A DNA stretch of 40,823 bases. It comes from an uncultured Candidatus Saccharibacteria bacterium. Lineage in GTDB: Bacteria > Patescibacteriota > JACPGU01 > CAZICA01. The notes under the pieces are model-generated. The model searched no databases. It saw only the letters and a program-made list of their open reading frames with translations, and was not told the DNA's origin. Every line of letters starts with the position of its first letter. Position 1 is the first letter of the stretch. Made by a program: the position numbers and the translations under genes. The stretch covers positions 1-40,823 of the forward strand of contig CAZICA010000005.1 in assembly GCA_964537705.1 (NCBI GenBank), read 5' to 3'. This document shows positions 3,920-14,295 of this stretch, one piece after another.

Positions 3920-4667
3920 ATTCTAAAAAATTTACGCTTTTTATCTCTTTATCTCCTAGGTGATATTTAATAAAAATTTGCATTAACTTATTTAATTTCT
4001 TTAACAGTTCATTATTAATTTTAGATGAAAAAATTTGAGAAAATTCATTTTCTAAAATATAGGTGCCTGTTTCTCTTAATTTATCAGAAATCAAAATTCC
4101 CTCTCTATTATTTCTGCATTTTTCGCACAAAACGCCCCCTAATTCAAAAGAAAATAGATTTTTTTCTTTTAAATTATCTTTTCCGCATTTTATACAATTT
4201 TCAAATTGAGGAGCATATCCTAAAATTTTTGTTAACTTAAGTTGAAAATAAACCAAAACTAAAGGAAGAATATCTTTTTTTAATTCATCTAAATAATTTA
4301 AACATTCTAAAAGCAGGTCGAAAAGTTCTTTCCCTTTAGGATCGCTGATCTCTTCTTCTATTAATTTATTAACAAGTTCTAAAAAATAAAATCCGTAAAA
4401 TAAAAAAGAAAGATCTTTTTTTAAGTTTAAAAACGAATTTTCAAGTTGAACACCTATTATTAAATCAAATTTTTTTCCTTTCGCTATCTCTATATTTACC
4501 AAATTAAATAGTTGAAAATAAGGTGCTAATTTTGCTGAACTTTTTTTCATTCCCTTTCCTTTCAACTTCAGTTTCCCGTTTTCTGTCAGCACAGTTATTA
4601 ATTTATCTTGTTCTTTTAGATCTTTAATATCTAAAACAATTCCTCTTGTTCTATGAATTTGGATCAT
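3903..4667 (-). CDS. recO: DNA repair protein RecO
   Basis: 254 aa. N-terminal OB-like region (RTRGIVLDIKDLKEQDKLITVLTENGK) and a central CxxC...CxxC zinc motif (CIKCGKD...CEKC). Confidence 0.85.
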   Translation of the reverse strand: MIQIHRTRGIVLDIKDLKEQDKLITVLTENGKLKLKGKGMKKSSAKLAPYFQLFNLVNIEIAKGKKFDLIIGVQLENSFLNLKKDLSFLFYGFYFLELVNKLIEEEISDPKGKELFDLLLECLNYLDELKKDILPLVLVYFQLKLTKILGYAPQFENCIKCGKDNLKEKNLFSFELGGVLCEKCRNNREGILISDKLRETGTYILENEFSQIFSSKINNELLKKLNKLMQIFIKYHLGDKEIKSVNFLEYANFL

Positions 4668-5773
4668 TTTTTCTTTCTTATCTTGAATTTTTTCTCTAAT
4701 TCATTTAAAGTTTCCACTACACCTGTATATTCTAGTTCAGACATTGGTAACATTGCTGGCCCAAAAAATCCTTGCCTTCGGATCTCTTGAGCTTTTCTTG
4801 CTGCTTCATCTCTTACCCAATCCCAATAAGGATGATCAAATGCATCAGCTGGCTCTGTAAGTTTTCCTCTTTTAACACAAAAAGCTAAACAACTAACTTG
4901 AGGGGGACCATCAAAATACGAGATTGGGCTATTCTTTTTCACAGGAATCAAAGGACCAATATGAGATCCCCTCATAAATCCAGCAACATAATGAGCTATA
5001 GAGAAAGAAGCTAATATTTCTCCTGTTGCTGGAAAATTTTTCTGGGTTCTTACAATCATCACTGGATCATCTTTTCCCACATATTTTCCTGCAATATTAT
5101 GAAGACGAGTTGTACTTACTGATACCACCTGTTCTCCTGTAGCTCTAGAGAAAATCCCTTCTATTACAAATCGTTCTGTGTCTCTTAAAAGAGCAGCAAG
5201 ATCATAAAGATCCTCCGGGGCCTCCAACTCTATTATTTTATCTGCTTTTGTATAACTAACATCAATTATTCTAAATCTAAATCCTTTTTTAATTATTGGA
5301 GATAGAATTAATCCAGGAGTATTCATTGGGTCGGCAAAACTTAAATAAAGAGGTAAATTAAAAGCACCTGGATCTGTTTTATCAGCAGCAAAAATTAAAA
5401 ATGGCTCAGCTGGTCTTTCTTCAAACTCGATTTCAGCAACTGCTGGCCCCATTCCCTTAACATTTCCTGCAAAAGCTTCTTTTAAAAGATCTTGTCCAGC
5501 TCCATAAAGACCTTGTGCTTTTGCAATCTCCGTGCCTTTTTTAAAAGCATCCCAACAAATTTTATGAACCTTCTCATTAAGAGGTCCCTTTTTATGAACA
5601 GATAAGATAGCGATATCATCTCCTGTGAATCCTACATAAAAATCTAGAAAAACTCCTTTAGCTTGTTTTTTTAAAAAAGAACAAATACTCTCTATCAATT
5701 TAGAAGAAGGTTTGATATGACCTCCTATCGAGCCTATATCTGCTTTAATAAGACTTAAAGTAATTTTTGCCAT
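4664..5773 (-). CDS. fbp: Fructose-1,6-bisphosphate aldolase/phosphatase (class V FBPase, archaeal type)
   Basis: 369 aa. Matches this family through SLIKADIGSIGGH at the N-terminus plus GKYVGKDDPVMIVR, MRGSHIGPLIPV and FDGPP. GGAGGG RBS upstream. Confidence 0.92.
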   Translation of the reverse strand: MAKITLSLIKADIGSIGGHIKPSSKLIESICSFLKKQAKGVFLDFYVGFTGDDIAILSVHKKGPLNEKVHKICWDAFKKGTEIAKAQGLYGAGQDLLKEAFAGNVKGMGPAVAEIEFEERPAEPFLIFAADKTDPGAFNLPLYLSFADPMNTPGLILSPIIKKGFRFRIIDVSYTKADKIIELEAPEDLYDLAALLRDTERFVIEGIFSRATGEQVVSVSTTRLHNIAGKYVGKDDPVMIVRTQKNFPATGEILASFSIAHYVAGFMRGSHIGPLIPVKKNSPISYFDGPPQVSCLAFCVKRGKLTEPADAFDHPYWDWVRDEAARKAQEIRRQGFFGPAMLPMSELEYTGVVETLNELEKKFKIRKKK

Positions 5774-5788: not shown

Positions 5789-6664
5789 TTATTTCTGACA
5801 TTTTGGACAAAAATGAGCAGAACGTCCTCCTATTTTTATTCTTTCAATAATTGTTCCGCATTTTTTACAAGGTTTTCCTTCTCTTCGATAGACAAATCGC
5901 TCCCTATCAAATCTTCCCAATCTCCCTTTTATGTCCCTAAAATCGGAAATACTTTCTCCTCTTAATTTTATAGCCTTTTTTAATACATTTGAGATAGAAT
6001 TATAAATCCTTTTCAGCTCTTTTTCACTTAGATCTTTTACATCTCTTGCAGGTAAAATTCCGCTTTCAAATAAAATTTCATCAGAATATATGTTTCCAAT
6101 TCCTGCAATTACTGATTGATCCATTAAAATTTTTTTAATTGGTCCTTTTCTATTTTTAATTGCTTCTTTAAATTTTTCAAAGGTAAAATCTTTCTCCAAA
6201 GGTTCAGGACCATATTCGGAAAGATAGTTAGCTAAACTTTCTTTATCAATTAATCTAATAGCGGCAAATTTTCTTAGATCTGATAAAGCAAGTTGATTTC
6301 CGTCAGAAAGTAAAAAGGAGAGATGAATAAATTGATTTCTGGGATCTTTAAGTTCTTCTGGCAAATTATCTCCTGTCCATTTTGAATTTTTAATTTTATA
6401 TTTCGAATCCACTAGTAGAAGATGTCCTGTCAATTTCAAATGAATCAATAAAACTTTATCCGAGGATAAATAAAAAAGAAGATTTTTTGCTCTTCTTTTA
6501 ATCTCTTTAATCTCTTTATTTTTTATTTCTCGCTCAAATTCTTTAAAGGAAGGTTCTTTTATTAGGTTTTTAGTATCACAATATAAAATTTCAAGGATCT
6601 TTTTTCCTTTTATAGATTTATTCAAATCTCTTTTAATTGTTTCAACCTCTGGAAGTTCAGGCAT
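5789..6664 (-). CDS. mutM: Formamidopyrimidine-DNA glycosylase (Fpg/MutM)
   Basis: 291 aa. Catalytic N-terminus MPELPEVE and a C-terminal zinc finger CKKCGT...CPKCQ. Confidence 0.93.
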   Translation of the reverse strand: MPELPEVETIKRDLNKSIKGKKILEILYCDTKNLIKEPSFKEFEREIKNKEIKEIKRRAKNLLFYLSSDKVLLIHLKLTGHLLLVDSKYKIKNSKWTGDNLPEELKDPRNQFIHLSFLLSDGNQLALSDLRKFAAIRLIDKESLANYLSEYGPEPLEKDFTFEKFKEAIKNRKGPIKKILMDQSVIAGIGNIYSDEILFESGILPARDVKDLSEKELKRIYNSISNVLKKAIKLRGESISDFRDIKGRLGRFDRERFVYRREGKPCKKCGTIIERIKIGGRSAHFCPKCQK

Positions 6665-7579
6665 CTAAGCTGCCTTCCTATAATCAAATCCTATTTGATT
6701 AAAAATTTCTATTAATCTTTTATCAACTTCTTCTTTTTTAGTATTTTGCTCTCTAATAGCTTTCTCCCATCTTTCCTCTTCTTTTAAATTTGGCTCTATC
6801 GTCCCACTTAATGAATCATCGAATTTCTCTAAAAATTTTTCTAACTCATCTAACGGGAGTTTAGAAGGCTCTATTTCTAAATATCTCTCTTCTTTTATCT
6901 TATCTTCTTCCTTTCTTCTCTCTTTATATTTAATTTTCCCTTCTTTTTCGAATATAACATCTTCTAAAGGAGCATCTTTCTCTGTAAAAAGGATACTTAA
7001 ATCAATTTTTCCATTTTCTATCATCTCAAATAATTGCTTGTTGGTAACAGGTCTTTCCTCTCCTTTTTCTAAAGGAAATTTTACCTCTAACCCTTTAATT
7101 CCATAATTTTTGAAAGAAAAAATTGTTTTTCCTTTTTCATCGATTATTCTTTCCTTTGGAGCTAATTTTTTTAATAAAGCAACTAGACTTTCTCGGAGAG
7201 TCTTGTCAATAGGACTCTCTAAAGCTCTTTTTTCTTCGGGTTTAAGAGAAAGATTAAATAATTTTCTTTCTATTCCTTCTCTTCTCTTTCTTAAATCTTC
7301 TTTAATAGGTAAAAGAAATGTTTCTTTGTAAAGCTTGTTAATTTCTTCCCTTTTTTCTAATTCTGTTTGATAACTCTCAATAGTCGAAATAATGGCTATT
7401 CTTTCGGCATTTTTATTGTTTAATTCCCGCTCAAAAACCCTTTTTTCTTTAAGAGATAATTCACTTAAAGGTAAATGTTCTAATGCTTTTTCTATTAATT
7501 TTTCATTAATTTCTAGTTTTGGTAATTCTTCCGAGGAAATTTTTTCTACCGATGGGAATGGCTCTTTTTCTTCTTTCAT
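6665..7579 (-). CDS. Hypothetical Lys/Glu-rich protein, probably largely helical
   Basis: 304-aa ORF with no motif I recognise. Its TAG stop (6665..6667) directly abuts the mutM ATG (6662..6664), and it starts 37 nt after the EndoQ-like gene, so it is probably co-transcribed with both. Confidence 0.6.
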   Translation of the reverse strand: MKEEKEPFPSVEKISSEELPKLEINEKLIEKALEHLPLSELSLKEKRVFERELNNKNAERIAIISTIESYQTELEKREEINKLYKETFLLPIKEDLRKRREGIERKLFNLSLKPEEKRALESPIDKTLRESLVALLKKLAPKERIIDEKGKTIFSFKNYGIKGLEVKFPLEKGEERPVTNKQLFEMIENGKIDLSILFTEKDAPLEDVIFEKEGKIKYKERRKEEDKIKEERYLEIEPSKLPLDELEKFLEKFDDSLSGTIEPNLKEEERWEKAIREQNTKKEEVDKRLIEIFNQIGFDYRKAA

Positions 7580-7616: not shown

Positions 7617-8930
7617 TTAAAACAATCTCATTTGTTCCTCTTCTTTAGTATACTCCATCTTTTTCTCCTTATCAACTCCTTTTCCAAATACAGAAATTTT
7701 GCCATAGATTCCATCATATCCTGGAATTTTTAAAACATCTCCTTTTCTTGCTTTTAAAATACCTTCTAAAATATTAGGTGGACAACCTCCTTTCTTAAGC
7801 TCCTCTTCTGATTTTTCAAGAAGGATAGAAAATTCTGAATCGAACCTGAAAATTAAATCAAAATATTGAGCTTCTACTGCTTTTGAATTCTTGTTTTGAC
7901 CCAAAGCTTCTGCAATAATTTCTATCAAAGGAACCAGATGAACAGAATCAACAGCATTTTTAGGCTTAAACCCTTCTTCCCTATCTGCTAATGCTTCCAC
8001 TCGATGAAGTACTCCAATAGTTAAAGGTTTCCCACATTTAGGACAAATATTATTGTTCTTTATAGCTTCTTTTGGAGACATTCTAAGTCCACAATTTCTA
8101 TGGCCATCAAAATGATACTTCCCTTCTTCTGGAAAAAACTCAATAGTATAGAGAAATTTATCCGATTCCTGAGCCGGTTTTCGATTAAAAGGAGCTGAGT
8201 TTTTGATTAATTCAATTAATTTCTGATAACTGAAATCCTCTATATCTTTTATCTCAAAAACATTTGCTTCCCTAGCTATATTTGAAGGAGAATGGGAATC
8301 AGAATTGGAAATTAAACATATCTTATCTAAAGCAGAAATTCTCCAATTCATTTCTGGATCAGAAGAAAGACCGGTTTCTAAAGCATAGATATAAGAACTT
8401 AAATCTTTAAAGCACTCTTTGATTGAATCAAAGCCAGAATTTGCACCAAATAAAGAAAACCAAGGAGTCCAAACATGAGCAGGAACAACAAAACAATTTT
8501 CATCTATATTAAGGATCAATTGTAAAAGATCATAGGCAGATAAAGAAAAGGTTGGTCTTCCATCTGCGTATAAATTCCCAAAATCACTTAATCTTTCATT
8601 AATTAAAGCTACGGTTTTAAAAGATGGTGCGAAAATCAAAAGATGGATTTTTCTTAATTTTCCTCCCTCAGAATAAATACAAGAGACTTCGGTGGTTAAA
8701 ATAAACAAAGGAAATTTTTCTCGAGAATTTTTAAATTTGAAAAATCCATTCCCTAAAGGCTCTAATTTATTTTTTAATTCGTCAAACCAGAATGGATGAG
8801 TAAAATCCCCTGTTCCTAAAATTCCAACCCCTTTATACTTTGCCCACTCTAAAAGATGCTCTAAATCCATATTTTTAGAGGTAGCTCGACTGTATTTCGA
8901 ATGAATATGAAAATCACAAATTAACCTCAT
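7617..8930 (-). CDS. Endonuclease Q-like PHP-domain nuclease (TIGR00375-type)
   Basis: 437 aa. N-terminal PHP motif DFHIHSKYSRATS...GILGTGDFTHP and a C-terminal Zn-finger-like region HRNC...CPKCGKPLTIGVLHRVEAL, the layout I associate with archaeal EndoQ. Confidence 0.8.
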   Translation of the reverse strand: MRLICDFHIHSKYSRATSKNMDLEHLLEWAKYKGVGILGTGDFTHPFWFDELKNKLEPLGNGFFKFKNSREKFPLFILTTEVSCIYSEGGKLRKIHLLIFAPSFKTVALINERLSDFGNLYADGRPTFSLSAYDLLQLILNIDENCFVVPAHVWTPWFSLFGANSGFDSIKECFKDLSSYIYALETGLSSDPEMNWRISALDKICLISNSDSHSPSNIAREANVFEIKDIEDFSYQKLIELIKNSAPFNRKPAQESDKFLYTIEFFPEEGKYHFDGHRNCGLRMSPKEAIKNNNICPKCGKPLTIGVLHRVEALADREEGFKPKNAVDSVHLVPLIEIIAEALGQNKNSKAVEAQYFDLIFRFDSEFSILLEKSEEELKKGGCPPNILEGILKARKGDVLKIPGYDGIYGKISVFGKGVDKEKKMEYTKEEEQMRLF

Positions 8931-8950: not shown

Positions 8951-9079
8951 AGCGTAAAGCGTAAAGCGTAAAGCGTAAAGCGTAAAGCGTAAAATTAAAA
9001 ATTAGTTTTTAGCTTTTAGTTTTTAGTTTTTAGTTTTAAATTATCGTTTTTCGCTTTTAGCTTTTAGTTTTTAGTTTCA
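8951..9079. repeat. Heptanucleotide tandem-repeat block
   Basis: Read directly. (AGCGTAA)x6 at 8951..8992, AATTAAAAATT core at 8993..9003, five T-rich heptamers (AGTTTTT/AGCTTTT) at 9004..9038, AATTAT, then five more (CGTTTTT/CGCTTTT/AGCTTTT/AGTTTTT/AGTTTCA) at 9045..9079. The last run encodes the C-terminal KLKTKS tail of the phosphoesterase gene. Confidence 0.9.
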
Positions 9080-9533
9080 TTATCAGCCATTGATTCTTTC
9101 TTCCTCTCCACTTTGTTTTTATCATAACATATTTTCCTTTTAATTTCCTCCCTTTAAGCACAAATTCTAATTCTGTCAGCTTTTCAGTAGGAGATGTTTT
9201 AATTTTCAAATCTTTATAAGTTCCTTTATCCCAAATCTTAACCTTACCTGCCCCATAAAGTCCTTCAGGAATTTCTCCTTCAAAATTAATATAATCAACA
9301 GGGTGATCTTCCACCTGAACAGCTAATCTTTTTATTCCTGGTTCTTCAGGTATTCCTTTTGGAACCGCCCATGATTTTAAAACCCCATCCATTTCTAATC
9401 TAAAATCAAAATGATGATGAGTGGCCCAATGTTCCTGAACAACAAATCTTTTCTTACCTGTTTTTATTACCTTCCCTTTTGGCTCAGGTGTTTTTTCAAA
9501 AATCCTTTTTTCCCAATACTCTTTAAGACTCAT
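9057..9533 (-). CDS. Stand-alone LigD-type 3'-phosphoesterase (PE) domain protein
   Basis: Motifs LKEYWEKRIFEKTPEP and FVVQEHWATHHHFDFRLEMDGVLKSWAVPKGIP match the LigD PE domain. The ORF track extends to a GTG at 9599, but the family N-terminus begins at MSLKEYWEKR (ATG at 9533). The GC-rich palindrome at 9596..9610 looks intergenic. Confidence 0.85.
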   Translation of the reverse strand: MSLKEYWEKRIFEKTPEPKGKVIKTGKKRFVVQEHWATHHHFDFRLEMDGVLKSWAVPKGIPEEPGIKRLAVQVEDHPVDYINFEGEIPEGLYGAGKVKIWDKGTYKDLKIKTSPTEKLTELEFVLKGRKLKGKYVMIKTKWRGRKNQWLIMKLKTKS

Positions 9534-9621
9534 AAATTTAAAAAATTTTTCTAAAAACGAAGTTAAGATTTGATACCCAAAGTGTCCGGGATTGACCACC
9601 CCCGGGGTGGGAATTAAACTA

Positions 9622-10692
9622 TCAAGTTTTTTCTCTTCTTATTTCAGCTATTCTAGCTTTTCCATCACCACTTCCAATAATAGCAAATTTACCATCTGGG
9701 CTAATGGAAGTGGACAAAACTGCTCCTCCGATATCTACTTCTTCTATCAGTTTCATTCCAGTTATTTTACCTTTTTTATTTCTTTCGATTTTGGCTAATA
9801 TAAGTTCTCCATAATCATTTCCAATAATAGTAAAAGTTCCATCGGGGCTGATGGAAGTGGAATACACATAACCTCCAACATATACTTCTTTAATTATCTC
9901 CATTTCAGGTATTTCAGCTAATCTAACTTTCCCATCACTACTTCCAATAATAGCGAAAGTTCCATCTGGACTGATGGAAGTGGAATAAACACAACCACCA
10001 ACTGCTACAAGTCCAATTATTTCCATTCCGGTGATATTACTTTCTTCGTCTTTTTTGATTTTAAATAAGCTAACTCCTCCATCACCACTTCCAATAATAG
10101 CAAATTTACCATCTGGACTGACAGAGGTCGAATAAATCCTCCCTCCAACTTTTACTTCTTTTATTACTTCTATTCCAGTTACATTACCTTTTTCATCTCT
10201 TTTGAGTTTAGCTAATCTGGCTTGATCTTCACTTCCAATAATAACAAAGGTTCCATCTGGGCTGACGGAAGTAGAATAAACTAATCCTCCAATCTCTACT
10301 TCTGTTCTTTCTATTATTTTTATTCCGGTTATTTTTCCTTCTTTATCTCTTTTTATTTCAGCTAATCTAACTTTCCCATCACTACTTCCAATAATAGCGA
10401 AAGTTTCGTCTGGACTAATGGAGGTGGAAAGAACCCATCCGTCAGTTTCTATTTTAATTATTTCCATCATTCCAATAATTTTACCTTCTTTGTCTCTTTC
10501 AATTTTAACTAATCTCGCTTTTCTATCCTCGCCACCAATAATAACAAATTTACCATCTGAACTGATAGAAATGGAACAAACTGCTTCTCCAACTTCTATT
10601 TCTGCTCCTTCTATTAGTTCTATTCCAATTTTTGTTTCTAGTTTTTCTTCTAACTCTTTTAAAACCTCTTCTGGAATTTCTTTTTCAGGCAT
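9622..10692 (-). CDS. WD40-like seven-bladed beta-propeller repeat protein
   Basis: 356 aa with seven repeats of about 45 aa, each carrying (V/L)xSTS(I/V)SPDG(K/T)F(A/V)IIGSxDGxxxLxxI. RBS AAGAGGA upstream. Confidence 0.8.
   Translation of the reverse strand: MPEKEIPEEVLKELEEKLETKIGIELIEGAEIEVGEAVCSISISSDGKFVIIGGEDRKARLVKIERDKEGKIIGMMEIIKIETDGWVLSTSISPDETFAIIGSSDGKVRLAEIKRDKEGKITGIKIIERTEVEIGGLVYSTSVSPDGTFVIIGSEDQARLAKLKRDEKGNVTGIEVIKEVKVGGRIYSTSVSPDGKFAIIGSGDGGVSLFKIKKDEESNITGMEIIGLVAVGGCVYSTSISPDGTFAIIGSSDGKVRLAEIPEMEIIKEVYVGGYVYSTSISPDGTFTIIGNDYGELILAKIERNKKGKITGMKLIEEVDIGGAVLSTSISPDGKFAIIGSGDGKARIAEIRREKT
9910..9961. repeat. Intragenic exact DNA repeat, copy 1 (partner at 10354..10405)
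   Basis: TATTTCAGCTAATCTAACTTTCCCATCACTACTTCCAATAATAGCGAAAGTT is identical at both positions. Both copies encode FAIIGSSDGKVRLAEI in two propeller blades. Confidence 0.9.
10354..10405. repeat. Intragenic exact DNA repeat, copy 2 (partner at 9910..9961)
   Basis: Same 52-nt string as 9910..9961, read directly. Confidence 0.9.
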
Positions 10693-10800: not shown

Positions 10801-11556
10801 TTATTTTAAGAAGGTTTTTAGTTTTAGGGCGTTTTTAACTGCGTATCCGAAAGCATCGTTATTGAAAAAAACATAAACTTCTTTAATTCTCTTTGGCAAG
10901 TCTTTTATTTCTTGAGCTAATTCTTCCAATTCTTTATCAGAATAAGAAGAGCTATAAAGTTGCCCAGGACCATGGCGTCTAATATAGATAAAATCTGCAG
11001 TTAGAGGAACTTGAATTTCATTAGAAGATTTCTTTTTTAATTTAAGATCAAAAGGCCAATCTGCTATTACAGGAGACATTTTATAAGATTTCAATAGTTT
11101 ATAAACATTAGCTGAGAACCATGTTTTATTCCGAAATTCAAATGCATGAAAAATATTGTTTGCTTTCTTTTTTAATAACTTGCAAAATTTTTCCAATTTT
11201 TTAACATCTGCTTTAAATCCTGGTGGAAATTGCCATAGAACTACTTTCAGCTTTTCTTTTAAACCTTTGACTCTTTCAAAAAACAATTCTAAGGGTTCCT
11301 CTATCTCTTTTAATTTCTTTAAATGAGTAATAATTCTTGATCCCTTAAGAACAAATTTAAATTCTTCTGGAGTTCTTCTATACCAGTTTTTAAAAGTAGT
11401 TTCTTTCGGCAACCTATAGAAGGTCACATTTAATTCTACCACTTTGAAGTATTTGCTGTAAAATTCCAACCATTTATAAGAAGGAAGATCTTCTGGATAG
11501 AAAACTCCTTTCCAATGATTATAACTATATCCTGATGTCCCAATAAAATATTTCAT
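10801..11556 (-). CDS. DUF72 (UPF0759/YecE-like) family protein
   Basis: 251 aa. The N-terminus IGTSGYSYNHWKGVFYPEDLPSYKWLEFYSKYFKVVELNVTFYRLP is the typical DUF72 signature. Confidence 0.88.
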   Translation of the reverse strand: MKYFIGTSGYSYNHWKGVFYPEDLPSYKWLEFYSKYFKVVELNVTFYRLPKETTFKNWYRRTPEEFKFVLKGSRIITHLKKLKEIEEPLELFFERVKGLKEKLKVVLWQFPPGFKADVKKLEKFCKLLKKKANNIFHAFEFRNKTWFSANVYKLLKSYKMSPVIADWPFDLKLKKKSSNEIQVPLTADFIYIRRHGPGQLYSSSYSDKELEELAQEIKDLPKRIKEVYVFFNNDAFGYAVKNALKLKTFLK

Positions 11557-11568
11557 TTTTATTCTTTT

Positions 11569-12510
11569 TTATTCTTTTATCCTATTTAAAGCTGCTTTTA
11601 CTCTTTCTTTTGAAAAATCTCGCTCTTCACAAAGAAATTTTATTAATTTCCTTTTATCAGGAGGAACCCATTTTAGTTTATAATCTAAAGTTACTGGCAT
11701 TGTTTTGATATAAGAAAATAATATATCTGGACTCACTTCAAAATCCCACTCTATTTTCTCTTTTTTTCTCCTTTTAGAAAATAAAATAGAGAGTTTAGGA
11801 TATTTTTTAATTAATTCAAGTGCCCGTTTAGGACCAATTCCTTCTCCATCTACTTTAGCTCCTTCAGGATTAAAATCAGTTCCTATTAAAATTGATAAAA
11901 GAATAAGCTGATTAAAAGAAATTTTATGTTCCTTTAAAATTTCTTTTAACTCTATTAGATATGGTCTGATAGGTTTATGATCTGAGGGTAGCTTTCTATA
12001 TCTTGAGAAAGTTAAATTAAAAACCATTCTTTTTGCCCCAAAAATTAAACAATCATAATCTTGAGACCCAACAGCCCAAACTCGCTTTGCTAAAGGACAT
12101 CTCTCTGTTGTCATAAAAGCAGCCTGAGCTTCTCCTTCAGCTGGTGCCTGAATAACAGGCAGTCCTAAAAGAGTAAGAAGTTCGATAGATTCTTTAATAA
12201 TTTCAGAAGTCAAAGTGGTAGTTTCCCGGAAAGAAAACTGGCCAGAGATTATTTTTCGATATCTTTTAATCTCTCTTAAAGGGCCATCTAATATAAAACA
12301 CAATTTTAATCCTTCAGCCATTAAATGAGTTGTTCTAAAAAATAAACCTAGAAGATGAGTGGTAATCCTTCCTTTCCTATCGGTAAAAATAGGCATGGTT
12401 TTCAAAAATTGATAAAGAACTAAATAGGTATCAATTGCAATCTTTTTTCCTTTCAATTGAGAAAGTTTTATCTCTTTTTTTAAAACCAGTGATTTTAAAT
12501 TAACGCCCAT
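11569..12510 (-). CDS. fen: Flap endonuclease 1 of archaeal/eukaryotic type (XPG/Rad2 N and I domains)
   Basis: 313 aa. MGVNLKSL...KKIAIDTYLVLYQFL, GRITTHLLGLFFRT, ILDG, APAEGEAQAAFM, SQDYDCLIFG, and an H3TH region LIGTDFNP...GIGPKRALELI. Confidence 0.88.
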   Translation of the reverse strand: MGVNLKSLVLKKEIKLSQLKGKKIAIDTYLVLYQFLKTMPIFTDRKGRITTHLLGLFFRTTHLMAEGLKLCFILDGPLREIKRYRKIISGQFSFRETTTLTSEIIKESIELLTLLGLPVIQAPAEGEAQAAFMTTERCPLAKRVWAVGSQDYDCLIFGAKRMVFNLTFSRYRKLPSDHKPIRPYLIELKEILKEHKISFNQLILLSILIGTDFNPEGAKVDGEGIGPKRALELIKKYPKLSILFSKRRKKEKIEWDFEVSPDILFSYIKTMPVTLDYKLKWVPPDKRKLIKFLCEERDFSKERVKAALNRIKE

Positions 12511-13123
12511 TTTTTCTATCTTTTATATATAATTTTTCCCATTTTGGTAAAGCTTTTTCTAGCTTCCATACCCAATCAAGATGCCAATCTCGCCAAAGAC
12601 CTATTAGGAAATTTTTTGGAAGCTTATATTTTTCAGTAAGTTTTTCAAATTCCTCTTTTGAAGAATGTTTTTTTCTTCTCCCTTCTTTAATCCATTCAGA
12701 AAGAGGAGCTAAAGAAATCAAAATTTTATATATAAACTTGGCAATCTCTAAAGCGCTCTTTCCTTTATGATAAACTTCTTTTTCTATATTCCCTTCCCAG
12801 TCACAAAAAAGGTGCCAATGCTCTAAATTTAAATTATGAAACAGTTCGATCTCCTCTTCTCCATAGGAAACTAGATAAAATTTCAATCGAGGACATTTAA
12901 TTAAATATCTGAATAGTTTACTTAAAATTGCTTCTTCATGTTCATGAGAGGATTTTATAATTTTTGCTGTTAAAATCTCATAAGCAACATCTTTCTTTTT
13001 ATCATAAACATCAAAAATTGCAGGTTTTTTATGATCTTTTCTATACTCCAATTTAATTTGATGATCTAATTTTCTTTTTAAATATTCTTCTGCTTTTTTA
13101 TGCAAAATCTTGTAAGAAATCAT
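12500..13123 (-). CDS. Hypothetical protein embedded between the LigD-Pol and FEN1 genes
   Basis: 207-aa ORF. It overlaps the end of the upstream Pol gene by 26 nt and the fen start by 11 nt. No family recognised. The FDVYD...AYEILTAK stretch is only weakly like a PD-(D/E)xK nuclease core. Confidence 0.6.
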   Translation of the reverse strand: MISYKILHKKAEEYLKRKLDHQIKLEYRKDHKKPAIFDVYDKKKDVAYEILTAKIIKSSHEHEEAILSKLFRYLIKCPRLKFYLVSYGEEEIELFHNLNLEHWHLFCDWEGNIEKEVYHKGKSALEIAKFIYKILISLAPLSEWIKEGRRKKHSSKEEFEKLTEKYKLPKNFLIGLWRDWHLDWVWKLEKALPKWEKLYIKDRKNGR

Positions 13124-13952
13124 AATTGGTTTTAAAAAGCCACTTAGAATAATTTAAAAGATTATAATTTTTTGGATCTATTCCTCTTTTAAGCCTTTCC
13201 CATCTTAAAGGAACAGCAATAGTAGCAAAAGAATTTGCTCTTAAACTAAAAGGAGCTACAGCAGTTTTTCCTTTTGAATTTTGTTGCCAATCAATATAAA
13301 CTCCTTTTCTTTGCTTTTTATCTAAAGCTATTAATTCCGGATAAAATTTATCTAATATTTTTGCAACATCCTTTACAAATTCCCTTGATTGATCAAAATT
13401 ATATCTCTTTTTATTTAAAGCATAAATATGAATTCCTGAAAGTCCAGTAGTTTTCGCAAAAGACTTATAATTAAGCTCGTCTAAAATCTTTTTTATTAAA
13501 AGGGCTACCTTAGAGATATCTTTAAAAGAAACTGCTTCTAAAGGGTCTAGATCAAAAAGAATAAATTTTGGTTGATCTAAATTATCAATTGGAGCAAGCC
13601 AAGGATGAAATTCAATAACTGCAAGATTAACAAGCCATATTAAAGTCTCTAAATTGTTGCAAATTATATAACTAACAGATTTTTTAAGATGGGAAGAAAA
13701 AATATCTTTTGTTTTTATCCAATCAGGAATCCCCTTTGGCTTTTCTTTCTCCCAGAAACACCTTTCAATTCCATTTGGGCATCTTACTCTTACCAAAGGA
13801 AAATTTTTTAAAAAAGGAATCATTAAAGAAGAAACTTTAAGATAATAATCAAGAATCTGGACTTTTCTAATTTTTAATCCCGGATATAAAATTTTTTCCA
13901 AATTAGATAAGGATAAAATTTGTTTTTTAATTTTAACAAATTTCTTCCCCAC
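13098..13952 (-). CDS. Stand-alone LigD-type polymerase/primase (archaeo-eukaryotic primase superfamily, NHEJ PolDom)
   Basis: 284 aa. LSNLEKILYPGLKIRKVQILDYYLKVSSLMIPFLKNFPL, catalytic FDLDP, and TGLSGIHIY. GTG start at 13950..13952, 1 nt after the HIT gene stop. Confidence 0.88.
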   Translation of the reverse strand: MGKKFVKIKKQILSLSNLEKILYPGLKIRKVQILDYYLKVSSLMIPFLKNFPLVRVRCPNGIERCFWEKEKPKGIPDWIKTKDIFSSHLKKSVSYIICNNLETLIWLVNLAVIEFHPWLAPIDNLDQPKFILFDLDPLEAVSFKDISKVALLIKKILDELNYKSFAKTTGLSGIHIYALNKKRYNFDQSREFVKDVAKILDKFYPELIALDKKQRKGVYIDWQQNSKGKTAVAPFSLRANSFATIAVPLRWERLKRGIDPKNYNLLNYSKWLFKTNYDFLQDFA

Positions 13953-13953
13953 C

Positions 13954-14295
13954 TTAGCTAATCATTGGACCTAAATTTTTTCCTCCTAATAAATGTAAAT
14001 GAATATGAGCAATTTCTTGGCCTGCGTCTTTTCCACAATTCAAAATCAATCTGTAGCCTGAATCTTGGATCTTAAATTCTTCTGCTAAATTCTTTGCAAC
14101 TAAAATTAGATTTCCTAAAGTTTCAACCTCTGAAATATCTAGATCTTTAAATTCCAAATGTTTTTTAGGAACGATCAAAATATGAATCGGTGCCTTTGGA
14201 TTGATGTCTTCAAATGCGAGAATACGTTCATTTTGATAAACAATTTTTGAAGGAATTTCTCCAGCAATAATTTTGCAAAAAACGCATTCTTCCAT
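13954..14295 (-). CDS. HIT-family (Hint-like) nucleotide hydrolase
   Basis: 113 aa. CVFCKII N-terminus and histidine triad HIHLHLLGG. GGAGGG RBS upstream. Confidence 0.9.
   Translation of the reverse strand: MEECVFCKIIAGEIPSKIVYQNERILAFEDINPKAPIHILIVPKKHLEFKDLDISEVETLGNLILVAKNLAEEFKIQDSGYRLILNCGKDAGQEIAHIHLHLLGGKNLGPMIS

Follow-up and report, generated by a model that had tools for sequence, protein, structure and literature searches.

Within a window of 40,823 nucleotides (the whole stretch of DNA that was analyzed) from the genome of an uncultured Candidatus Saccharibacteria bacterium, we identified a short archaeal-type FEN1 of 313 amino acids (positions 11,569 to 12,510, minus strand) that lacks both the helical arch and the PCNA-binding PIP box. 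This assignment draws on Pfam XPG_N and XPG_I matches, the NCBIfam profile fen_arch, the structure 1mc8, an AlphaFold2 model, and a phylogenetic tree; the identity of the protein, its clade membership, the parts it has lost, its gene linkage, and the gene inventory of its host are directly established. Lacking both arch and clamp-binding tail, and encoded within an operon for DNA end repair, this short FEN probably serves in repair as a nuclease that needs no clamp. On balance, we favor a role in cutting 5' flaps or 5' ends during patch or end-joining repair, a substrate, pathway, and set of partners that we infer from its features and surroundings.

The open reading frame begins MGVNL in the window translation, the archaeal-like start to which an earlier note, made from the sequence alone, had drawn attention, and the translation contains every motif that the note listed (AID, ILDG, EGEAQAA, SQDYD, GTD, and GIGPK). 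The protein scores above the gathering cutoffs of Pfam XPG_I (74.2 bits; cutoff, 24.9) and XPG_N (33.6 bits; cutoff, 22) and has no Pfam match at E ≤ 0.01 to the bacterial 5'-3' exonuclease families PF02739 (5_3_exonuc_N) and PF01367, which settles the profile comparison proposed earlier in favor of the XPG/FEN1 family. Its match to fen_arch (TIGR03674; 279.8 bits, E = 2.9e-83) lies below the equivalog cutoff of 351.95 and consists of two stretches split around the arch. The best PDB match is P. horikoshii FEN-1 (1mc8; 1.1e-63), again with a gap at the arch, and the top Foldseek matches of the model are archaeal FEN-1 proteins (E = 1.8e-27; TM up to 0.85), to which the sequence is 38 to 41% identical. 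In an alignment of 25 sequences, the acidic residues D27, D75, E127, D151, D153, and D212 do not vary and E125 varies very little, and across 36 sequences as well the seven positions are invariant or almost so; the metal-binding acidic residues of human FEN1 are D34, D86, E158, E160, D179, D181, and D233. Loss of the catalytic acidic residues had been named as grounds for rejecting the FEN1 reading, and all seven are present and conserved. The H3TH motif likewise retains invariant G210, T211, and D212 and nearly invariant G226 and K228 (GTD ... GIGPK), with an insertion of 4 amino acids between the two motifs. Judged by these conserved residues, the protein keeps an intact active site; it belongs to a separate clade of short FENs.

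Three elements of canonical FEN1 are missing or trimmed. Alignment with the FEN-1 proteins of P. horikoshii and P. furiosus (1mc8 and 1b43) breaks at query residues 84 to 97 versus chain residues 89 to 124, so that approximately 22 amino acids of the helical arch are absent, close to the shortening of roughly 25 estimated in the earlier note. Consistent with this, the AlphaFold2 model (mean pLDDT, 95.4) contains no helix between residues 75 and 101, and the arch region is instead an ordered, nonhelical stretch (pLDDT of ~96 to 97). The α2-α3 loop, which forms the 3'-flap pocket, has lost 5 to 6 amino acids, with a single Pro in place of R-QPDGTP. Finally, the alignment to the Pyrococcus proteins stops at chain residue 323 of 340 to 343, ahead of the PIP box. 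Canonical FEN1s end Q..L..WF, and in a 25-sequence alignment the protein and its clade stop short of this motif; the C terminus is ERVKAALNRIKE, with the protein ending at ...NRIKE, ahead of the point at which canonical sequences have Q..L..(W/F)F, and the earlier note had likewise observed that the motif is absent.

K93 and R100 of the arch are important for catalysis by canonical FEN1. Among 36 short-clade sequences the position aligned with K93 is not conserved (Gly in 11, Lys in 10, and a gap in 9), and therefore short-FEN activity could be weak or different in kind; a subgroup of 280-amino-acid short FENs lacks the entire arch-aligned stretch. The part played by the K93/R100 pair has probably passed to R95, which hardly varies, and to a cluster of basic K/R residues. 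An enzyme of this kind would be unable to thread a 5' strand through an arch and, as a consequence, should tolerate blocked or continuous 5' strands.

A phylogeny with archaeal FEN1, which the earlier note had recommended, places the protein inside the FEN1s of DPANN archaea. The short FENs (280 to 313 amino acids) form a single clade (SH-aLRT, 99) that branches among the FEN1s of Woese-/Pacearchaeota (support, 99), and the arch, loop, and PIP-box deletions are common to more than 50 homologues. Short FENs are rare: they occur in 6 of 401 Nanoarchaeota genomes, a tally that, like the one for the neighboring protein p207 given below, includes six unpublished genomes (G760, G644, G796, G733, G722, and G645) on which no individual claim depends, and in 1 of 401 genomes sampled from the host phylum, namely, the host itself. 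When the short-FEN alignment was searched against genome contigs, the matches listed were almost only canonical FEN1 loci, with a single short form (L049) among them. Two genomes, G401 and G456, hold a short FEN together with a canonical FEN1. The arch and PIP-box losses already mark a clade of archaeal paralogues and did not evolve as adaptations within the bacterium. The clade would have originated when canonical FEN1 was duplicated in DPANN archaea of the Woese-/Pacearchaeota type; it would have shed the helical arch with its cap, a portion of the α2-α3 loop, and the tail that binds PCNA.

The host is bacterial by its housekeeping genes: EF-Tu, EF-G, L2, SecY, and RpoA all score above bacterial equivalog cutoffs, and the FEN gene lies ~4 kb from the ribosomal-protein/rpoA cluster, the bacterial ribosomal-operon neighborhood described earlier. 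With the XPG/FEN1 matches and the nesting among DPANN FEN1s, this bears out the suggestion of a cross-domain family member. With its 46 contigs, the genome assembly is of the metagenome type, and this, together with the fen_arch score under the equivalog cutoff, could point to a chimeric contig, a binning error, or a catalytically dead remnant. Such an artifact or decayed gene is largely refuted, and we give it next to no credence: one contig (63,965 bp in its database record) contains the gene, which has bacterial genes on both sides and a frame that overlaps its neighbor, the third-position GC content and codon usage of FEN and p207 match those of the host (for the FEN gene, a GC content of 0.18 and a codon-usage correlation with host genes of 0.94), the catalytic residues are all conserved, and more than 50 homologues carry the same deletions.

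Canonical FEN1 matures Okazaki fragments in archaea and eukaryotes, and proximity to the ribosomal-protein/rpoA cluster would suit an enzyme that had taken over this task from the 5' nuclease of Pol I. We consider such a replicative role very unlikely. The host encodes PolA with an intact 5_3_exonuc_N domain (C8:20409-20906; 196.6 bits, in a 912-amino-acid frame); because PolA keeps its 5'-nuclease domain, the FEN is an addition and not a replacement. No PCNA was found in the genome, which is 94% complete, and the protein has no PIP box, in keeping with the idea in the earlier note that its partner is not PCNA. Furthermore, recognition of double flaps depends on the arch and the 3'-flap loop, both of which are cut back in this protein, and G401 and G456 keep a canonical FEN1 beside the short form.

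The gene belongs to an operon of repair-related genes, all on the minus strand, in the order HIT, LigD Pol, p207, FEN, DUF72, WD40, and LigD PE. The operon opens with a HIT/Hint-type hydrolase (13,954 to 14,295; PF01230, 9.5e-27; Hint-like NCBIfam matches fall below their cutoffs), whose stop codon lies 1 nt before the start of a stand-alone LigD primase-polymerase domain protein (13,098 to 13,952; PF21686, 4.8e-70; TIGR02778 ligD_pol, 231.1 against a cutoff of 214.7). The nearest relatives of this polymerase are ~42% identical, and the named one is bacterial. The p207 frame shares 26 nt with LigD Pol and 11 nt with FEN, and 12 nt downstream of FEN follows a DUF72 TIM-barrel protein (10,801 to 11,556; PF01904, 5e-69; PDB 1vpq [TM1631], 1.1e-33). 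A WD40 β-propeller (9,622 to 10,692; WD40 repeats, 5.5e-23) comes next; it was considered as a conserved partner of FEN and p207 and rejected, as tblastn found no homologue in any related locus. A stand-alone LigD 3'-phosphoesterase (PE; 9,057 to 9,599; PF13298, 1.4e-41; TIGR02777, 201.1 against a cutoff of 144) completes the order. Adjoining the operon are an Endonuclease Q homologue, an archaeal-type lesion-incision nuclease (7,617 to 8,930; PDB 5zb8 PfuEndoQ, 4.8e-52 over residues 5 to 414; TIGR00375, 2.1e-46, below cutoff), and, at the downstream edge of the repair cluster, an Fpg/MutM glycosylase (5,789 to 6,664; Fapy_DNA_glyco, H2TH, and zf-FPG). Elsewhere in the genome, on contig C14, Ku (171.9 bits) is adjacent to an ATP-dependent ligase (128.7 bits), and at the genome level the archaeo-prokaryotic NHEJ set of Ku, ATP-dependent ligase, LigD-type Pol, and PE is complete.

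The protein encoded between LigD Pol and FEN, p207 (12,500 to 13,123, minus strand; 207 amino acids), represents a new, very small family with a putative PD-(D/E)xK nuclease fold. It has no Pfam, NCBIfam, or PADLOC match, a PDB profile search returned nothing meaningful, and Foldseek gave no match at E ≤ 0.001. Twenty-nine homologues were found, and all those with a taxon label are from DPANN archaea; a p207 profile search against 1.84 billion representatives recovered one full-length cluster and one fragment, along with a weak match to a TIR-repeat protein that we judged spurious. In the predicted model (pLDDT, 89.7), residues 1 to 121 match an αβββαβ core, followed by a Trp/Arg-rich helical domain at the C terminus, and the structural matches are almost all PD-(D/E)xK proteins with middling Z scores (5.0 to 7.7). 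D38, E49, K54, and a group of clustered histidines are among the residues that never vary; D38 and E49 map to core strands 2 and 3, with K54 immediately past strand 3, an atypical spacing. The core is one that p207 would share with SfsA, XisH, NucS/EndoMS, Bax1, and Cas4. Unlike PD-(D/E)xK families, however, p207 carries an E-x4-K motif instead of (D/E)-x-K and has no sequence-detectable relation to any family, and it adds to the fold of those five proteins the clustered invariant histidines and, at the C terminus, a helical domain rich in Trp and Arg that is unique to it.

p207 is a conserved genomic partner of FEN. The two are linked in seven loci, where the partner in DPANN archaea is either a short or a canonical FEN1, and in the locus L131 a DUF72 gene lies directly upstream of p207. 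The nearest relatives of the FEN and p207 of the window appear to share the same short contigs (matching sizes of 3,196 and 2,871 bp), and the two genes were probably transferred as a pair; the short FEN would have entered this small-genome bacterium by horizontal transfer with the p207 gene alongside. Viral contigs carry only giant-virus-type FENs (~28% identity) and no p207, and gave no sign of a viral vector. Linkage is not universal: five short-FEN genomes lack p207, and three of their loci have the unrelated neighbors Lit and Lgt. In another genome, G712, the short-FEN frame and the last part of a gene for a methylpurine-DNA glycosylase overlap. The presence of EndoQ and Fpg beside the operon and the glycosylase overlap in G712 provide an independent repair context, which supports a repair reading.

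In archaea, p207 is linked to Thg1-like 3'-5' polymerases as often as to FEN. The Thg1-like gene is directly upstream of p207, usually overlapping it, in five loci (L122, L127, L130, L133, and L141) and nearby in two more (L132 and L142); Thg1 is present in 3 of 3 genomes with p207 and in 0 of 2 short-FEN genomes without it. General synteny between FEN1 and Thg1 as the source of this archaeal trio was ruled out, since none of 112 other FEN1 loci has Thg1 nearby. LigD Pol prefers ribonucleotides, and in the window its gene overlaps p207 in the same position. These observations would fit an RNA or tRNA 5'-end repair module in which p207 and FEN would cut back 5' ends that are damaged or mismatched, to be rebuilt by a terminal polymerase that copies a template (Thg1-like in archaea and LigD Pol in the host); Thg1-like proteins repair 5'-truncated tRNAs in vitro (PMC3061083). 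Nevertheless, we find RNA repair rather doubtful, given that the genome of the window has no detected Thg1, the surrounding genes (LigD Pol, PE, EndoQ, Fpg, and DUF72) belong to DNA repair, FEN retains the H3TH motif for binding duplex DNA, and the short FEN of G712 is coupled to a DNA glycosylase. In addition, processing of tRNA is not known for any characterized FEN1. The linkage of p207 to Thg1 in archaea nonetheless points to RNA ends and counts against a DNA-repair reading.

A broader proposal, which we offer tentatively, is that p207 and FEN form the core of an unrecognized, horizontally mobile nucleic-acid end-repair module with a coupled template-dependent terminal polymerase. It is possible, on the same tentative footing, that the PD-(D/E)xK nuclease and the 5' nuclease (arch-less in some lineages) trim a damaged terminus and a translationally coupled polymerase rebuilds it, with the Thg1-like enzyme of DPANN archaea having been replaced nonhomologously by the LigD primase-polymerase here. 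Were this so, the Thg1-like proteins of prokaryotes would have the nuclease partner they have lacked so far, and prokaryotic end joining would gain a branch in which 5' flaps are cut.

The scattered occurrence of these genes (FEN in 1 of 401 and 6 of 401 genomes; p207 in 1 of 401 and 2 of 301) also raises the question of a mobile accessory or defense-type pair that attacks foreign or aberrant nucleic acid, for which the repair surroundings would be incidental. PD-(D/E)xK nucleases are common in defense systems, and the pair has crossed between domains. Even so, a defense function seems unlikely: PADLOC matched none of the eight cluster proteins, no close relative was found on viral contigs, no sensor, ATPase, or immunity-like gene accompanies the pair, its frames overlap with LigD Pol, and its neighbors in three unrelated contexts are repair or housekeeping genes.

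For the favored clamp-independent repair nuclease, we envision that LigD Pol (or PolA) would fill in from a nick, gap, or annealed break and displace the 5' strand; FEN, without a sliding clamp, would then remove the displaced 5' flap or a damaged or ribonucleotide-bearing 5' end, and the outcome would be a ligatable nick. p207 probably trims the other strand or recruits FEN. In favor of this reading, Fen1 is required after strand displacement in the published EndoQ repair model (PMC4858679); against it, in the published model of archaeo-prokaryotic NHEJ, displaced strands are resolved via 3' resection by PE and not by 5'-flap cutting (PMC4797286). The FEN/p207 pair stands beside LigD Pol and PE at this single locus only; this, and the existence of short-FEN loci without p207, also count against the repair reading.

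XPG/FEN1-family nucleases are almost unknown in Bacteria, and this is a clear and well-integrated case with a nameable archaeal source clade; it is further evidence that DPANN archaea and CPR-type bacteria exchange genes. The short-FEN clade is also a natural experiment on the roles of the PCNA tether, the helical arch, and the loop for the 3' flap: its natural enzymes, more than 50 of them, have a full active site and none of these three parts and should show what the FEN1 core can cut without threading. Gene order suggests partners (p207, LigD Pol, PE, DUF72, EndoQ, and Thg1-like proteins) and could give functions to p207 and DUF72; these partners could also show whether some pathways of prokaryotic end joining or patch repair cut 5' flaps instead of relying on 3'-end resection alone.

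Comparison with known systems places the enzyme closest to archaeal FEN-1 (P. furiosus 1b43, P. horikoshii 1mc8, M. kandleri 4wa8; TIGR03674), with which it shares the fold, the seven acidic ligands, the N-terminal MG, and the GTD and GIGPK motifs, but it lacks ~22 amino acids of arch and cap, 5 to 6 amino acids of the α2-α3 loop, and the PIP box. In archaea the short form is a second, rare paralogue, whereas here it occurs in a bacterium in whose genome no PCNA was found. The XPG_N/XPG_I catalytic core is common to GEN1 and XPG/Rad2, which have no capped arch to force a free 5' end to be threaded, a feature that goes with action on continuous strands (junctions and bubbles). Matches to these proteins are far weaker than those to archaeal FEN-1 (Rad2, 8.8e-13, and GEN1, 7.9e-11, by sequence; XPG, ~1e-15 to 1e-16 by Foldseek), and the short FEN has no chromodomain, spacer region, or dimerization features. 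In the tree, the arch was lost within the lineage of archaeal FEN1s, independently of GEN1, XPG, and Rad2. With the N-terminal domain of Pol I, ExoIX/Xni, and FenA it has in common the PIN-like/H3TH superfamily and, as predicted, the same general job of a clamp-independent 5'-flap nuclease or 5' exonuclease, but it belongs to a different family and matches neither PF02739 nor PF01367. A 2017 census of PIN-like proteins counted XPG_I-family proteins in 2 bacterial sequences out of 6,119 (PMC5499597). Lastly, the host has all four stand-alone components of Methanocella paludicola-type NHEJ (Ku, Lig, Pol, and PE); that system as described has no FEN (PMC4797286), whereas in this bacterium a FEN, a putative PD-(D/E)xK protein, a DUF72 protein, and a β-propeller are encoded between Pol and PE.

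The protein encoded at 11569-12510 (-) is 313 amino acids long, begins MGVNL, and contains all of the motifs that the earlier note listed for it. It matches Pfam families XPG_I (74.2 bits) and XPG_N (33.6 bits) above their gathering scores and has no Pfam match to a bacterial 5'-3' exonuclease family, the better fit that the earlier note had considered as an alternative. The NCBIfam model fen_arch (TIGR03674) matches at 2.9e-83 in two separate stretches, with a score of 279.8 bits that lies below the equivalog cut-off of 351.95. The closest solved structures are archaeal FEN-1 (1mc8, 1.1e-63; 1b43, 2.8e-62), and a Foldseek search with an AlphaFold2 model (mean pLDDT 95.4, pTM 0.92) likewise placed archaeal FEN-1 structures at the top and XPG/Rad2 cores far lower. 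Together, the XPG matches, the lack of a bacterial exonuclease match, and the archaeal structural relatives indicate that the proposed archaeal-type FEN1 identity is real and specific. The suspected shortening of the helical arch is also borne out: the alignment with archaeal FEN-1 chains breaks at query residues 84 to 97 (chain residues 89 to 124), and residues 75 to 101 of the model are helix-free at a confidence of ~96-97. The alignment stops at chain residue 323, short of the PIP box, in agreement with the proposed absence of a C-terminal PCNA interaction motif.

The nearest of 5,460 homologs share 44-59% identity with the window FEN and are 280-313 amino acids long, compared with 40-45% identity for canonical DPANN FEN1 proteins (~344 amino acids). 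Aligned with canonical sequences, these short FENs have three losses: 5-6 residues of the α2-α3 loop (a single Pro for R-QPDGTP), 22-36 residues of the arch, and the terminal Q..L..WF motif. Loss of catalytic acidic residues, which the earlier note had raised as evidence against the assignment, is not seen; all seven acidic ligands (D27, D75, E125, E127, D151, D153, and D212) and the H3TH motifs are conserved, and by sequence the clade, including the window protein, keeps an intact active site. In the arch remnant, the counterpart of human K93 is K82 in the window FEN, and either Gly or Lys occupies this position in the clade; the 280-amino-acid subgroup is missing the entire stretch. At R95, which belongs to a P-[RK]-x-T motif, 35 of 36 sequences have R or K.

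A maximum-likelihood tree of 98 FEN sequences recovers a single short-FEN clade (SH-aLRT 99). It unites the window protein with all 52 short sequences and with another short protein whose N terminus carries a mis-called extension; the sub-clade of the window FEN also holds homologs P0002-P0007 and the protein of locus L134. The nearest relatives of the window FEN lie on short contigs. The short clade is nested within canonical FEN1s of Woese-/Pacearchaeota, a grouping that also has an SH-aLRT of 99; because canonical sampling was biased to sequences most like the window FEN, we regard this nesting as the best-supported placement rather than as proven. FEN1 is present in 395 of 401 sampled Nanoarchaeota genomes, and the short form is found in only six of them (G712, G456, G568, G668, G401, and G569). 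Each of the six gives two FEN matches, confirmed in G401 and G456 as one short and one canonical FEN1. Among 401 genomes sampled from the window's phylum, the short form occurs in the window's genome alone; a 2017 census recorded just two bacterial XPG_I sequences (PMC5499597).

The window FEN is embedded in a repair operon. In transcription order, the minus-strand cluster comprises HIT, LigD Pol, p207 (a 207-amino-acid protein, 12500-13123), FEN, DUF72, WD40, LigD PE, an Endonuclease Q (EndoQ) homolog, a 304-amino-acid protein, and Fpg. The EndoQ homolog (7617-8930 [-], 437 amino acids) matches PfuEndoQ (PDB 5zb8, 4.8e-52) and no Pfam family; it gives the co-oriented cluster a second repair nuclease of archaeal type, and EndoQ is known from few bacteria only (PMC4858679). 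The 304-amino-acid frame (6665-7579 [-]) matches nothing in Pfam or PADLOC, and its stop codon directly adjoins the start codon of Fpg. Between RecO and Fpg lies a further archaeal-flavored gene, a class V (archaeal-type) fructose-1,6-bisphosphatase (4664-5773 [-]; PF01950, 3.7e-160).

An artifactual origin is less likely. The repair cluster is flanked by RecO, Fpg, alanine racemase, and LysM proteins, and the window's EF-Tu, EF-G, RpoA, bacterial L2, and SecY exceed bacterial equivalog cut-offs. FEN (GC3 0.18, codon-usage r of 0.94) and p207 (0.19 and 0.87) fit host housekeeping genes, and the LigD Pol/p207 and p207/FEN frames overlap by 26 and 11 nt, respectively. A chimeric contig is therefore unlikely. 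The genome (756 kb, 46 contigs, 94% complete) encodes a PolA with a 5_3_exonuc_N domain; the window FEN, of archaeal ancestry, sits in a bacterium with its own PolA 5' nuclease. Searches of this genome found neither PCNA nor Thg1. Ku and an adjoining ATP-dependent ligase (326-amino-acid frame) lie on a contig separate from LigD Pol and PE (G000:C14:18497-19851), and a second, short Ku-like frame of 162 amino acids is present at G000:C2:31427-31846.

The p207 protein has no match in Pfam, NCBIfam, or PADLOC. We found 29 homologs among 5.8 billion proteins, those with taxon labels all from DPANN archaea (Aenigmat-, Micr-, Pace-, and Woesearchaeota), and a profile search across 1.84 billion cluster representatives yielded a single full-length cluster. 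Conservation is strong (mean column identity, 53%), with invariant H8, D38, E49, K54, H60, E61, E64, K69, Y73, H96, H102, W103, H104, H119, E143, W144, R149, and H153. Its model (pLDDT 89.7) has an α-β-β-β-α-β N-terminal domain (residues 1 to 121) and a helical C-terminal domain. Exhaustive structural comparison returned PD-(D/E)xK nucleases almost exclusively (Z values: SfsA, 7.7; XisH, 7.6; SdaI, 7.5; NucS, 6.3; Bax1, 5.8; Cas4, 5.0), and the Atlas leads indicate this clan as well; because the Z values are middling, we consider p207 a probable nuclease of this fold.

Four loci carry p207 followed by a short FEN on the same strand (the window, L122 in Nanoarchaeota genome G456, L134, and L126, where one small frame intervenes), and in three others p207 neighbors a canonical FEN1 that has a PIP box, in the order FEN <-|-> Thg1-like -> p207 (L130, L132, and L141, the last in Aenigmatarchaeota genome G934). 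The gene for a Thg1-like 3'-5' polymerase lies immediately upstream of p207 in L122, L127, L130, L133, and L141, with overlapping frames in at least the first four, and near p207 in L132 and L142. Thg1 occurs in 3/3 p207 genomes versus 0/2 short-FEN genomes lacking p207, and near 0/112 other FEN1 loci. These loci are mutually related and their counts are non-independent; nevertheless, given three distinct gene orders across two archaeal phyla and a bacterium, we argue for a functional link. The window FEN and p207 genes, co-located here, were very probably transferred together. The p207 gene occurs in 1/401 Nanoarchaeota and 2/301 Aenigmatarchaeota genomes and is absent from five short-FEN genomes. 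A conserved 140-amino-acid frame accompanies all three Thg1-p207 loci with canonical FEN1 (L130:1271-1693, L132:2982-3404, and L141:4749-5171); it runs antisense to the FEN1 gene and shares 4 nt with its 3' end, and the L141 copy has no Pfam match. Two unrelated loci place DUF72 next to the p207/FEN pair (window 10801-11556 [-] and L131:2-352), and the WD40 propeller is conserved with the pair in no related locus. DUF72 proteins are TIM-barrel relatives of UV damage endonuclease and are enriched near PolB2 repair operons (PMC11791011); the recurrence of DUF72 hints that this uncharacterized family works on nucleic acid.

Archaeal Thg1 linkage suggests a role in RNA or tRNA 5'-end repair, the main rival reading, to which we give a rather low probability; the translational coupling of Thg1-like genes to p207 may reveal the missing nuclease partner of prokaryotic Thg1-like proteins. 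Elsewhere, the 281-amino-acid short FEN of Nanoarchaeota genome G712 is preceded by a methylpurine-DNA glycosylase gene whose stop codon coincides with the FEN start (L121:7998-9568), an independent base excision repair context for the clade. The Lit and Lgt genes that follow short FEN in L049, L123, and L124 look like lineage-specific synteny. Defense and replicative roles are less likely. We modestly favor a putative clamp-independent 5'-flap or 5'-end nuclease for patch or end-joining repair, which would act after LigD Pol, EndoQ, or glycosylases; arch loss would relax the need for a free, threadable 5' end, and p207 may be its partner nuclease or adaptor.

No description of the arch-less clade, p207, or a FEN in a LigD operon was found in the literature searched, in which subscription journals are thinly covered; all three are apparently undescribed. 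The archaeal EndoQ model calls for strand displacement, Fen1, and ligase after incision (PMC4858679). In archaeo-prokaryotic nonhomologous end joining as described, displaced strands are resolved by 3' resection by PE and not by 5'-flap cutting (PMC4797286).
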